Source of the DNA: Haplodiscus bocki
Lineage: Eukaryota
DNA length: 64,000 bases
Assembly: GCA_965655095.1 (NCBI GenBank)
Contig: OZ296656.1
Span: 64,542,001 to 64,606,000, forward strand
Direction of reading: 5' to 3'
The position numbers were made by a program, and so were the translations under genes. Position 1 is the first letter of the stretch; every line of letters begins with the position of its first letter. Positions 14,475-32,703 of this stretch are shown here, piece after piece. The notes under the pieces are model-generated. The model saw only the letters and a list, made by a program, of their open reading frames with translations. It ran no database searches and was not told the DNA's origin.

Positions 14475-17400
14475 TGTTAATAAAGAATTTGGCAAACAAC
14501 TGAAATCAGTTCAAGTCTTCACAAAAACGGCCAATCCAAAAGCTCACTGCTGAAAAGCAAACCTGGATCGAACACCACACCTCTCCCTTCCTTCTCGCAG
14601 TATGACTTACGAAGGTCCAGCCCAAGAGCCAGAGATAATATACTCAGACCCGTTTATAGACTTACTGAGCTATCTTCGAACTATCTGAAATAAAACGTCT
14701 CTGTTACACCTGGACCCATCCGTAGTAGATAGTTGAGCATTTCAGGTGGGGAAAGGGGTGGTGGATGACCCTCCATGTATTAAGATAGGGTAGCGCCTTT
14801 CTAAAGAGCCCAAATCCGAGAAGGGTCATCCTTCCTCTTATAGCTCGATTCTGATCAGTTTCGGTGCCCGTAATGTATTGGTATAGGTTATGGTAAGGCA
14901 ATGTGTTAGGATAAAGTGTAGTTCGGCAAGCTATTAGGATAAGGTGTAATTCGTCAAGGTAATAAAATAGGGTATAAATCAGTACTGTATTAAGATATAG
15001 AATGATAACCGGCAAAGTATTGATAGACGCGAAAAAGTTTTGCAATGTATAAAGATAAGGAGTTGGGTTTACTGACTAATTCTCTGCACTGTGAGACTTT
15101 TTCGAAAATTTGAAAGTTTTTGGCTGCCCCTGCGGAATAACTATTACGTCAGTTGTTAAATTTTACACCTGCGGTTAGCTTTTACAGCTGTAGATAGTTT
15201 ATTACGCCTGCAGTTGAATGCTACGCTTGCGGATACCGTTTTGATTTAATGCTTCGTAAGAAAAATGTATTGAAACTTCAAAGAAAAATGATTGGAGCGT
15301 AAATATTTTTGCCAAAAGTTAGGAACAAAGTTTTTGTGTATTATCTGAGATGTGTCGAAGCAACGAAGCAGATGAAATGACAAAAAGGTTAACAGAGTGT
15401 ATAAAAGTCATCAAAAAAATTGTACAACCTGTGTCTTCACATTCAGACATTCAATGCCAAAGAAAATACAAACAATTGAAAGCGAAACTTTCATGTGTTA
15501 TCTGAGTTATGTTGAGGTTATATATTCTCGATTAAATCACCTTAAAAACAACTTAAACACAATTTTTCTCCCCGTCAACTTAGAAATGAGCAATGTCTGA
15601 AGAAACTAGAACACTAACTCGACAGTTTGATGAAATTACTATTGCACTGGTTTTGGCAGGATCAGCTAGTGACGTGGACGATAATTTGCAATCCCAACTA
15701 CTAGAGCGCGGATTTTTTTTCAAGTTAGGTCGACAGATTGAAGAACGCAATCGTTGCCCCACTTGCCACACAATTAGAAACGCTGATCCAGTCAGTAAAG
15801 GAACTTAGCGGAAGAAATTGAACTGGTCGATTGAAGGGAACGTGACATGCGAACGATCGAGATCGCCGGGTCAATGTTCCAAAAAATGTATCATGAAACT
15901 TTAGATATTATTGGCCTAAATTATTGTTCCAGGAATTGATTTAGACTGTAATTCGTGGTTGTTTCCTGCTTCCGATAATATCTAATATATCTAGAATGTT
16001 AGAATTTACGATACTTGTTTACGCAGCTGCCCATTGGTAGCCCTGCCAGTGTCGATTGTTTTTCAGTTATCCTGCAAAGACTGCCTAAAAATGAGGTCCT
16101 CCAATGCTCAATATGACTGAAATCAAAAACGCTGTTGTCTTTTTTTTATGCAGGCTCGTTTTCGCTGGGATCTACGGGGTGTGCTCGTTGGTAGCCTTGC
16201 CAGTGCTGGTTGTTTCGCAGTCAATGGGCAAAGACTACAGAAAAGCAGTTTCAGATGTCCTCAAAAATTCAATCTGGTAGATCTCAGAGACTCCGTATTC
16301 GTAATTTTGTTGCTTGCTCGTTTCTTGTTTTCTCTTTTTTTGCTAGATTTCACGGGGAGAGTGTATGCTTTTGTTCATTGGTAGCTATTCCAGTGTCTTA
16401 AATGGACTTTTTAAGGTCCTCAAGTGATCAATTTTTTTGGCATCGAACGCGCTATAATCTTGATGTTTTATGTTTGCTCGTTTTTGCTGGGCTCCACCGC
16501 GGTATGTTCATTCACGTGTTGGTCGATAGCATTGCCAATATCCCCTGTTTCGCAAGGATCAATTGTGAGGTGCTTTTTTTGGTTTTTTGAGAAAAATCAA
16601 GAATCTACATTTTTGCCAAAAATGCGTTTTTCTTGCAGACATGGTAGATGCTTCCGTTTCCCAACGGTGGTCCATAAATGCATCTTTTCCGAGGTATAAG
16701 GGTTTTTTATGCGCATAGACCGTTTTTGAGATTTTCATTTTCATCGATAGCCACCGAGGGTTCATCAATGTCCTTGTCAAGAAGTGGCGCTAGACATCGG
16801 TGGACCACCGATGGCCACCTGCGGGATCCCATGGAGTCTCAGTACGGGTGTTAATAAAGAATTTGGCAAACAACTGAAATCAGTTCAAGTCTTCACAAAA
16901 ACGGCCAATCCAAAAGCTCACTGCTGAAAAGCAAACCTGGATCGAACACCACACCTCTCCCTTCCTTCTCGCAGTATGACTTACGAAGGTCCAGCCCAAG
17001 AGCCAGAGATAATATACTCAGACCCGTTTATAGACTTACTGAGCTATCTTCGAACTATCTGAAATAAAACGTCTCTGTTACACCTGGACCCATCCGTAGT
17101 AGATAGGTGAGCATTTCAGGTGGGGAAAGGGGTGGTGGATGACCCTCCATGTATTAAGATAGGGTAGCGCCTTTCTAAAGAGCCCAAATCCGAGAAGGGT
17201 CATCCTTCCTCTTATAGCTCGATTCTGATCAGTTTCGGTGCCCGTAATGTATTGGTATAGGTTATGGTAAGGCAATGTGTTAGGATAAAGTGTAGTTCGG
17301 CAAGCTATTAGGATAAGGTGTAATTCGTCAAGGTAATAAAATAGGGTATAAATCAGTACTGTATTAAGATATAGAATGATAACCGGCAAAGTATTGATAG

Positions 17401-17891
17401 ACGCGAAAAAGTTTTGCAATGTATAAAGATAAGGAGTTGGGTTTACTGACTAATTCTCTGCACTGTGAGACTTTTTCGAAAATTTGAAAGTTTTTGGCTG
17501 CCCCTGCGGAATAACTATTACGTCAGTTGTTAAATTTTACACCTGCGGTTAGCTTTTACAGCTGTAGATAGTTTATTACGCCTGCAGTTGAATGCTACGC
17601 TTGCGGATACCGTTTTGATTTAATGCTTCGTAAGAAAAATGTATTGAAACTTCAAAGAAAAATGATTGGAGCGTAAATATTTTTGCCAAAAGTTAGGAAC
17701 AAAGTTTTTGTGTATTATCTGAGATGTGTCGAAGCAACGAAGCAGATGAAATGACAAAAAGGTTAACAGAGTGTATAAAAGTCATCAAATAAATTGTACA
17801 ACCTGTGTCTTCACATTCAGACATTCAATGCCAAAGAAAATACAAACAATTGAAAGCGAAACTTTCATGTGTTATCTGAGTTATGTTGAGG
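13148..17891 (+). repeat. Direct tandem duplication of 2370 bp (13148-15517 and 15522-17891) with a 4-nt TTAT filler
   Basis: The ORF track repeats with offset 2374. The copies differ by only a few substitutions that I could see. Junction is GTTGAGG-ttat-ATATTCTCG. Confidence 0.95.
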
Positions 17892-30100: not shown

Positions 30101-31702
30101 AAAATTTAGCTTCGTTGGGTACACTCCAAGAATGTTTCTCAACAACTTTGTACGATCATCTGTAGATGGACGAAGACAAAGTGACGAGATCCCAACTTCC
30201 AATGTATTAGCTGTGACAATTGAACTGCTAGCGAATAGCTCCTATGTTTATCAAATAAAGGATAGCAGTCAACACACAGTAACAAAAACTTGAACAAAGA
30301 GAAAGTGAACTGTGCAAGAATTAGCAAGTTCTTTAGAAAACCAGATCATTCAAACAACCACTTGTACGAAGTACAACTTGCAAAGGCAGAAGTTGAACAT
30401 AAAGAACCTGTTGTCGCATTTTTTATTCAACATGCAAAACTATGGATGTTGCAGCTCTAGGACAACCTTCTTGAAAAGTTCTGTCATACCGACAAACTCG
30501 AGGATTTGAATATGGACACAATCCTTCTACTTTGTCCTTGCTGAAAAAAACTAAGCAATCATATTGGACCTGGGTTGAAAGTTTAATGGGAGTGATTGCG
30601 ATGCAGATACCGTGATGACAGTTTTGCGGTTAATGACGATGCAGTGAAAGTTACATCGCAAGTAGAGGTTTTCGGACAAAAGATCACTCTCTTGCAACGT
30701 GAGAGCAAACTGAACGAGGAGTGTCCTATTTTTTATGCAAAAAAATTGGTGAGGACGATGCAGTTCACACAAGTCCACTGAACTTATCTACTTACATTTC
30801 TATCATTTATATATTGTGTTGTGTTTGCTCGATCATTAGATTCTTATCAACTTTTTTGGAAATTTCCTTGCTTCCTGGTTCAACACAAATTATACAGTAT
30901 ATTCAAATGATGCCTTCAGAATTTCATTAATTTTTTGACGTGATAAATATCAATGAGAATGTACTGGTTATACAATGTATTTGGTGAGTTTTATGCATTC
31001 TAAGTCCTTTTCTGCCATTTCATCTGCTCCTTTGCTTGAGCACGTCTTAGGTAGCGAGCGCAAACTTTGTTTCTAATCATTTGCAAGATTTTTGGCTACA
31101 AAATTTCAATGTATATGTACAGGTTATACAATGTTTTTATTAATTTTCATACGTCTATTTAACTTCCTCTGAAAATTTTATACAATCGTTTTCAAAGCAT
31201 CAAGCCAAAACAACATCCGCAAGCGTAATAATTAACCGCAGGCGTATTAAACTATCTTTAGCTGTAGTAGCTAAGCGCAAGCGTAATAATCAAGCGCTGA
31301 CATAATATTTCGTCCGGGTGGGCAGCCAAAAACTTTGAGAGAAATGATTTTTCAAAAAAGTCTCATAATGCGGAAAATTAGCCAGTATACCCGACTCCCT
31401 ATCTTTATACATGGCAAAACCCTATTGCCTTTACTCTTTTATTGCCGATTATCATTCTCTGTCTTATTACATCACCGAACTATACCCTATCTTAATACAT
31501 TGATGAACTATACCCTACCTTAATGCATTGCCGAACTGTACTCTATCTTAATATTTTGCCGAAATATATCCTATCTTAATACATAGCCGGCGCCGAGACT
31601 AATCAGTATCGAGCTCTAGGATGGTGGATGACCTTTCTCGCATTTGGGCTCTTTCGAGAAGCTATACCCTATCTTAATGTATGGAGGGTTATCTATCCCC
31701 CT
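27176..31702. repeat. Right arm of the ~4.5-kb inverted repeat
   Basis: Reverse complement of 18069-22597. Confidence 0.95.
27178..30790 (+). pseudogene. Protein-primed family B DNA polymerase (Polinton-type), decayed
   Basis: Exonuclease-like VFGFNS (28520), FPYEGFD (28750) and YNNKDVVPTLEA (29015). Motif A region VGGPPIVFTRK...IVGLDARQLYPYSTCQPMPTG (29215-29365). Motif B ELLANSSYVYQ (30220). MDT of motif C (30510). Many frameshifts and stops. Confidence 0.85.
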
Positions 31703-32703
31703 CCCCCCCCCCTCCCCACCTAATCTGCTTACCTATCTACTACTCTCATCTCAGTACTAGTAGCATTGAACGTTTCATCTCTCCGAAGGAAAATAGGGAA
31801 CATCTCCCACTTTTTGCTTCCATTCCGTTACGTTATTTACTTTCAATTCGTCTACTTCAGAGTGATTTTCAAGAACTAGTAGAGTTTCTTCATCATAGCC
31901 ACGCATCAAGTAAGTACTAACTTTAATCCTTGACCTAGAAAAATTCTTGTCCTACAAAAAGTGAAAATTGACCTAAGAATCTGGATCTTCAAATCATCCC
32001 ACAATATTTGCCATGTCTTGGACTCCTTGTCCGTGCATAGACATATAGCCACGATTATTTCCTCGTGTCTGGTCACCAGAGTGTACTGATGACTCAAGAC
32101 GGAGGGATTCAGGTGTATGCTTAGAATGGCAAACATCATCACATTCTGGGAAGCCAGCCCGCTCATTGTACATGGTAATTTGGGTCCTCATACTCTGTAT
32201 ACTCAGTGACCAACTTCAAAATTCTCTCCACTCCTTTCTCCTCTTCTTGGGCCGGGTTGGAAATTTCCACTTTCAGAGGAGCCGATTTTTTCCTGAGACA
32301 GAAGTGTTGTATATATAAAATGGATTAAAAGTGGTTCTAAAAGCCAGCAATTATAAGTCTATTTTTCAAATGAATGAGTGATTGTAGTACCAATGCATCA
32401 TTTGATTGTGTAAGTGTATTATTATTTTTCATGCTAGTTATGACTATTCATCGTTATGCCGAATCTCAGTGAAAACAATCGTTATCAATGGCTATTTTGG
32501 AGCATACGAAAATGAATTTTCTGAACAACTACTGCAAGAAAAAGTATTTGTTGTGCTATCACATTCATCTTTAGGATTGGATGGCCTCTTGTTGTGTGTC
32601 GTTGAGTTGTCTCGGTTGAATGGTTATGCCAGCTCTGCTTTTGTTGAACCTCAAGGTACTCTCCGATAGACGGACTGTACTTTTCAATAGGGGTTGCAGT
32701 TGT

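Follow-up and report, generated by a model that had tools for sequence, protein, structure and literature searches.

How does a virus-like transposon come to carry its polymerase gene at both ends, in two nearly identical arms that face away from each other? The question is raised by a 64,000-nucleotide stretch of the Haplodiscus bocki genome (GenBank assembly GCA_965655095.1, contig OZ296656.1, positions 64,542,001 to 64,606,000 of the forward strand; hereafter, the window), in which a Polinton-like element with two copies of the gene for a protein-primed type B DNA polymerase (pPolB) had been proposed. The locus, at positions 17095-31744 of the window (14,650 bp), represents the remains of a Polinton, a virus-like transposon that is now old and broken, with the polymerase gene at either end. 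Its arms are mirrored in layers of different age, and the near identity of the arms appears to have been produced by repair after both genes had died. As to how the second polymerase end arose, we tentatively favour, with a probability of about 0.4, a single old copy-back-type insertion that had two pPolB ends from the start.

Two dead polymerase genes between Polinton-like ends

The two pPolB-derived sequences are oriented outward, and each can be aligned along ~1250 residues to unnamed proteins of ~1440 amino acids. In-frame stops account for 22 of 1117 codons in the left copy and 18 of 1016 in the right one (counts that exclude codons in poorly matching stretches; 1272 left and 1163 right codons were aligned), and each copy shows 10-12 frame changes between aligned pieces. 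Both copies are dead. The two "divergent" polymerases of the original prediction are divergent only in their orientation; their sequences are not, and each is a pseudogene. A reading as an active two-polymerase element was rejected because both genes are dead. In a simulation, ~18 stops per 1000 codons fits a decay of 0.10-0.25 substitutions per site, an estimate compatible with the divergence between the two ends of the element.

The identity of these sequences is known only via their homologs: a direct Pfam scan detected the protein-primed type B polymerase domain (PF03175) in none of 50 fragments of the window. A 75-residue fragment used as query yielded 543 homologs among 551 candidates, and the homolog clusters hold near full-length proteins of 1417-1446 amino acids. 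PF03175 scored above the cut-off in five of eight shorter homologs and in none of three full-length ones (E<=0.01). In the Atlas clusters ranked second to fourth among the neighbours, PF03175 is present in 94%, 30% and 96% of members, respectively, and the look-alike clusters are animal pPolBs. No relatives were found in bacterial and archaeal genomes, and a profile built from 23 homologs detected no further pPolB copy in the window. Sequence searches against the PDB returned only zinc-finger and weak VSR nuclease matches, and the AlphaFold model of a pPolB homolog failed, with a pLDDT of 38. In one of the homologs (P0001), the region of polymerase motif A is tandemly duplicated internally.

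The termini are those of a Polinton. At the left, the flank CCCATC is followed by CGTAGTAGATAGGT; at the right, ACCTATCTACTACT extends to 31744 and is followed by CTCATC. The (AGT)2//(ACT)2 end motif of Mavericks (PMC8097293) is exact at the right end and matches at five of six positions at the left, where the terminal A is replaced by C. The terminal motif is matched three times in the window, where 0.12 matches would be expected, because the left terminus and its flank have been tandemly duplicated: the duplication (2370 bp, four substitutions, a 4-nt insert at the junction) leaves the left end and the CCCATC flank present twice, with termini at 14722 and 17096. The end of an old dispersed direct repeat (5-1325 and 12177-13506, 69% identical, with weakly three-base-periodic mismatches, p=0.01) falls inside this duplication. 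The two flanks agree at five of six positions; agreement at this level or better has a chance probability of 0.7% in one register and 2.8% in five, and would be retained by 25-66% of true target-site duplications (TSDs) at the observed ages, which gives a likelihood ratio against chance of 9-92, depending on register and age. The element ends are thus where they had been placed, with the qualification that the left motif and the candidate TSD are each one base short of perfect and that the left end is no longer single.

By its pPolB, end motif, terminal inverted repeats (TIRs) and size, the locus is a Polinton-derived remnant (PMC8097293, PMC6431247). We do not rank it as a full member of the group because an integrase and a capsid module were not found. 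As had been noted before, no integrase is recognised between the pPolB copies: 23 fragments of the centre, and likewise the fragments of the arms, gave no match, in a scan of low power, given that a like scan missed pPolB. Equally, a scan of 55 fragments taken from the centre and a second palindrome in the window (P2, see below) gave no match to integrase, ATPase, protease or capsid proteins, a result that is weak for the same reason. The unmirrored centre, ~2.3 kb long and repeat-rich, is too short for a whole structural module. The sole match to the rve integrase domain in the window, a weak one at 39742-40221, belongs to a separate, decayed long terminal repeat (LTR) retroelement (36049-41481) and is flanked by LTR-like direct repeats (36046-36277 and 41249-41481, 85%).

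A mirror in layers of different age

The inverted repeat does not span the whole 14.65 kb as originally described; it is a layered mirror, the outer left end of which is out of register and ~2.3 kb of which is unmirrored (Table 1). In a self-comparison, 18069-22597 matches 31702-27176 at 98.4%. The segment 17096-18067 lies outside this main mirror and aligns, out of register, with the right end at 68.5% (self-comparison) to 72% (over ~970 columns, a length within the 100-1500 bp given for Polinton TIRs; 10.1101/2023.08.22.554363). The main mirror restarts at about nucleotide 42 of the right end, so that the terminal region is present twice on the left side.

The near-identical mirror is itself composite. 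Its two youngest tracts contain four substitutions in 3982 bp (~0.1%) and enclose a block that escaped conversion, in which differences fall on codon positions at 22:17:16, comprise 38 nonsynonymous to 7 synonymous changes and lie on both arms; two stops in this block are common to both arms and three are private. The divergence of the block is neutral. Together with the two shared stops, this implies that the gene from which both of today's pPolB copies derive was already dead, and the copies appear to have drifted ~12% apart before being mostly re-homogenised. Further inward, the right arm has lost the N-terminus of the gene by a deletion with 4-nt microhomology, and beyond it lies the mirror of middle age. 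The oldest layer is represented by the old left end, which differs from the right end by 23% in the outer 538 columns and by 34% in the inner 367. Because the ends greatly exceed the arms in age (23-34% versus 0.1% divergence) and the arms were copied from a dead gene, the near-identical arms are not the form that integrated; their identity would be the product of templated repair after gene death and not of a mobile form. The idea that the inverted repeat had expanded over the polymerase gene therefore fits the sequence of today, but not the element at the time of insertion.

At the oldest level, the pPolB tail and the region upstream of pPolB are both mirrored, with a fold-back-like switch in orientation. 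The buried inverted copy of the upstream region attained an alignment score of 114, compared to a maximum of 14 in 200 shuffles, and the switch itself, at ~26035-26042, is direct, with no recognisable host DNA. This arrangement has the anatomy of a copy-back genome as defined for defective viral genomes (PMC13506859). The unmirrored centre (23691-26034) contains no recognisable gene. Within it, 24200-24801 and 25463-25905 constitute an internal direct duplication of 31-bp repeat blocks (76-77%).

Junctions and probable repair

At the 18069 junction, arm identity starts at the junction and continues for 340 bp; the inner end of the second young tract has four mismatches in the last 38 nt before heterology. 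The former looks like a join made by copying and the latter like a conversion tract that stopped short of the boundary. Of the three motifs in the window that resemble G-quadruplexes (G4), one contains the 18069 junction, an observation made post hoc. The old left end stops within the last ~28 codons of pPolB and, because this tail is oriented to continue the left gene, 17095-18067 is most simply taken as the original left end.

With bounded tracts of 0.1% divergence beside strata of 12% and 23-34%, the arms are far more alike than the age of the structure would suggest, as in palindromes subject to arm-to-arm conversion. Multi-kilobase conversion between arms (PMC3723533) and maintained long inverted repeats in nematodes (PMC1803023) have been described, as have aborted synthesis-dependent strand annealing (SDSA) finished by end joining, replication blocks at G4 and scarred tandem duplications of 0.1-10 kb (PMC2895639, PMC8654963). 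From these analogies we infer the repair pathways assigned to the junctions below; the inference is drawn from one assembled haplotype.

A second layered palindrome

P2 belongs to a related TIR subfamily. Its ends have diverged by 19-22%, a middle tract by 0.7% and the inner arms by 7.5-9%, around a loop of ~600 bp. The left side holds two counterparts of the right-arm segment 58877-58586; as in the first element, subterminal repeats are duplicated out of register. Of pPolB, P2 retains only a short N-terminal remnant, and a 2.3-kb sequence (48000-50340) is present in both arms in place of the pPolB body; a homolog search with one reading frame of P2 gave nothing among 12 candidates. The right end has a G4-like run at 59217-59237 and the left end has none. 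A 6/6 hexamer match near the ends of P2 was rejected as a TSD, being several bases out of register after 225 register pairs had been tried. P2 shows that layered copying recurs but offers no support for a TSD-bounded unit. Two layered palindromes within 64 kb suggest that the process is common in this genome. A three-base periodicity inside the elements, seen in one of 11 comparisons (p=0.018), did not hold up, and a frameshift-tolerant coding score was too noisy for use.

One insertion or several

The history that we favour would begin with a Polinton-derived insertion, 17095-31744, that already had a pPolB-side end at both termini. During replication, the protein-primed polymerase may have turned back onto the nascent strand, with the turn-back point near 26040, yielding a panhandle-like defective genome. 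Having no structural module of its own, this genome would have been inserted by a helper integrase, leaving a 6-bp TSD; such integration in trans would follow only if the integrase was already absent at insertion, as the old mirrored pPolB neighbourhoods suggest. The element would then have decayed as host DNA while its arms templated each other's repair at least twice. In the first repair, ~12-13% of divergence ago and with the gene already dead, at least 3.8 kb of the left arm probably overwrote the right pPolB, with an out-of-register join at 26551/26552. In the second, very recent one (~0.1%), the right arm would have been copied into the left, synthesis ending in the G-run 42 nt from the terminus and the product being attached at 18068 to the old left end by end joining; alongside, a further 2.1-kb tract may have been converted and the left flank tandemly duplicated.

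That the locus is one bounded insertion overall, made by copy-back or by expansion in place, seems to us somewhat probable, because the flank match is 9-92 times likelier as a decayed TSD than by chance and because the ends share one TIR subfamily (40 shared versus 8 and 7 discordant sites, against P2). The original proposal of integration as one unit retains moderate support on these grounds and is weakened by the unequal decay of the ends: private changes are more numerous in the left one than in the right (28-bp array, 38:20; further, 10:8 and 10:7; pooled, 58:35, p=0.022). Several other observations also weigh against a single copy-back insertion. The difference in divergence between the outer and inner parts of the old ends is significant (23% versus 34%, p=0.0006). 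The buried upstream copy is star-like with respect to the left arm and P2, the informative sites numbering 46, 48 and 40; the termini do not behave in this way (p=2e-6). Differences between the ends are transition-rich compared to the younger strata (p=0.0045; the ratios for other old repeat pairs in the window nonetheless span 0.77-1.64), an excess for which CpG decay does not account. The flanks of P2 match at only one of six positions in the natural register, no empty site or flank homolog is present within the window, and, the old right pPolB body having been overwritten, two full genes at insertion are not directly visible.

Unequal decay, star-like upstream copies, termini that are more alike than the interiors and the lack of a TSD in P2 are all points in favour of at least two independent Polintons of one TIR subfamily, inserted in opposite orientation, of which a central deletion left the pPolB ends back to back, with arm repair following and the flank match due to chance. 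Polinton remnants at eri-6/7 of Caenorhabditis elegans, all of them likely pPolB-end, are likewise clustered and linked to rearrangement (10.1101/2024.01.15.575659). Nevertheless, this scenario requires the flank coincidence of 0.7-2.8%, and either palindrome pairs ends from its own subfamily. Furthermore, the pPolB tails lack the expected synonymous excess: their differences fall on the codon positions as 12:7:7, third positions show no excess, and the share of these is below the expectation from prior synonymous divergence (p 0.014-0.12). We consider two insertions a serious competitor, if a rather unlikely one.

Expansion in place would dispense with integration in trans. Here, a single Polinton, either ordinary or with an internal deletion, whose TIRs of at least 1.05 kb included the pPolB tail, would have inserted with this TSD. 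In the middle-age repair, the genes on the right would have been overwritten with the left pPolB, so that the second pPolB would have originated solely within the chromosome. The derivation of the present right pPolB from a dead gene is in line with this scheme, as are the behaviour of the buried upstream copy as an older paralog and the young innermost mirror of P2, which at 7.5-9% runs right up to the loop. TIRs of sufficient length have been reported, up to 1447 bp in vertebrate Mavericks (PMC8097293) and ~2 kb, with genes, in butterfly polintons (10.1101/2025.02.07.637071). However, two coincidences are needed, namely a tail within the TIR and an inverted upstream paralog located just 5' of the second pPolB, both of which a single copy-back event would explain; we regard expansion in place as unlikely.

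An assembly artefact (collapsed repeats, chimeric fold-back reads or a haplotype switch) might underlie the 99.9% tracts and the duplications. The youngest layer has only four substitutions in 3982 bp and its sole indel in a T homopolymer, and the 18069 junction lies at a G-run; G-runs are error-prone in sequencing. The 12% block, the 571-bp indel and the older strata could not be produced by a read artefact, the junctions carry scars at the sequence level (a 4-nt insert, microhomology), and in the youngest tract of P2 there are differences at 20 of 2843 sites. We reject fold-back at the read level as a full account, the middle and old layers being beyond its reach; an artefact could explain the youngest layer at most, and that in part, and is altogether very improbable. 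Finally, that 18069-31744 is a young, trans-mobilised palindrome that lost ~41 bp on the left and abuts an unrelated older remnant (17095-18067) would agree with its intact right terminus and less decayed right repeat array, its near-identical arms and the reported mobility of polB-less Polintons (10.1101/2025.02.07.637071), but is scarcely credible given the pPolB tail of the remnant, oriented exactly to continue the left gene, the neutral two-sided decay within the arms and the chance flank match that it requires.

Features of the locus and its surroundings

Table 1 Features of the Polinton-derived locus and of P2 (positions in the window)
Feature	Position	Strand	Remarks
Tandem duplicate of 15522-17891 (flank and first ~800 bp of the old left end)	13148..15517	+	Recent
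Left flank, candidate target-site duplication CCCATC	17089..17094		5/6 versus right flank
Old left end: decayed AGTAGT-type terminus, 28-bp subterminal repeats, last ~28 pPolB codons	17095..18067	+ (pPolB tail on minus strand, ~17983-18067)	Sequence comparison
Youngest tract 1, apparent inverted copy of the right end from 31702, inside the G4-like G-run	18069..19924	+	2 differences in 1856 bp
Left pPolB pseudogene	22876-18985	-	Aligns to homolog residues ~13-1444, N-terminal zinc-finger part included
Unconverted block, versus 29341-29846	19925..20433		60 differences in 506 columns
Youngest tract 2	20434..22597		2 substitutions in 2126 bp (20434-22559) and one T-homopolymer indel
pPolB N-terminus and upstream DNA, left arm only	22598..23168	-	571-bp indel; absent from right arm
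Middle-age mirror of 27179 to ~26570, running into 31-bp repeats	23169..23690		13.5% diverged over 23169-23562
Unmirrored centre: 31-bp repeat blocks, internal direct repeats	23691..26034	+ (left-arm orientation)	Collinear with P2 interior
Buried old inverted copy of the pPolB-upstream region	26035..26551	+	26257-26551 versus 23005-23315, E 8e-15, 34% diverged
Right pPolB pseudogene	27187-30786	+	Homolog residues ~109-1446; first ~108 residues missing
Right terminal region with an intact AGTAGT terminus, a tandem array of 28-bp units (31462-31589) and a G4-like run (31697-31717)	30787..31744	-	Sequence
Right flank, candidate target-site duplication CTCATC	31745..31750		Sequence read-out
Second layered palindrome P2, related TIR subfamily	46861..59264		Same 28-bp and 31-bp repeats

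Elsewhere in the window, a hAT-like transposase remnant (2897-4251) has zf-BED and DUF659 matches above the cut-off, and a match to the transposase of Mutator-like elements (MULE) at 7746-8201 is weak (E 5.5e-4, below the cut-off). A dispersed repeat family occurs in both orientations at 43959-44214, 63219-63473 and 6276-6505 (72-81%), adjoined by a 61-bp tandem repeat at 43598-43749. The single assembly gap, a run of 200 N at 6510-6709, is far from the element; gaps of this size are typical of long-read, Hi-C-scaffolded assemblies. No Rfam families were detected in 12000-60000, and no tRNA was found.

Implications and comparison with known systems

The locus and P2 might be fossils of a class of copy-back defective Polintons, with two pPolB-side ends, no structural module and insertion by a helper integrase with TSDs, a generalisation that we regard as doubtful. 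If true, such a class would be direct genomic evidence for adenovirus-like strand displacement with template switching and for defective-interfering genomes, and the long arms of its members would be especially prone to G4-associated repair templated on themselves. Sequence is almost the only source of knowledge on how Polintons replicate, and integrated copy-back products would make the strand-displacement model testable genome-wide. There is also a caution for dating: near-identical Polinton arms can arise long after death of the element. An age estimated from the similarity of the TIRs can then fall far short of the true age of the insertion, and host repair can give rise to "giant TIRs". 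Among the titles and abstract openings listed for Polinton/Maverick palindromes, non-autonomous forms, inverted repeats, duplication and gene conversion, none describes a Polinton with two pPolBs. The founding Polinton paper of 2006 reportedly mentions non-autonomous Polintons with long TIRs, which would lower the novelty of the present locus.

With Polintons/Mavericks (PMC8097293, 10.1101/2023.08.22.554363), the locus shares pPolB, (AGT)2-type ends, long TIRs, a candidate 6-bp TSD and a 14.65-kb span, and it is a decayed fossil like 96% of vertebrate Polinton loci (PMC8097293). It differs in having two outward pPolBs and an inverted repeat of ~4.5-5.5 kb in age layers, and in that integrase, ATPase, protease and capsid genes were not recognised in the low-power scan; PMC3014272, in the parts drawn on here, contains only ordinary Polinton copies. 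Its homologs show weak, non-significant VSR nuclease matches at residues ~953-1018 (E 0.31-0.35 and 0.13-0.19), a hint of likeness to the marine pPolB2 with an inserted VSR nuclease (10.1101/2023.08.22.554363). Butterfly polintons (10.1101/2025.02.07.637071) similarly have core genes doubled by an inverted repeat and are mobilised without a full gene set; however, the doubled genes there are hexon and adenain and the elements were recently active, whereas here pPolB is dead and the arm identity appears mostly to postdate insertion.

Copy-back or snap-back defective viral genomes (PMC13506859; adeno-associated virus (AAV) snapback, PMC8235507) have, like this locus, one genome end at both termini and a single-copy loop. 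They are described mainly for RNA viruses and AAV, whereas in H. bocki such an origin is proposed for an integrated fossil the original arms of which have mostly been overwritten. Finally, palindrome arm conversion (PMC3723533, PMC1803023) and aborted SDSA (PMC2895639, PMC8654963) share with the locus multi-kilobase tracts of near identity, scarred tandem duplications of ~0.1-10 kb and G4 blocks, but here the palindrome is a dead mobile element with arms of only ~4.5 kb.

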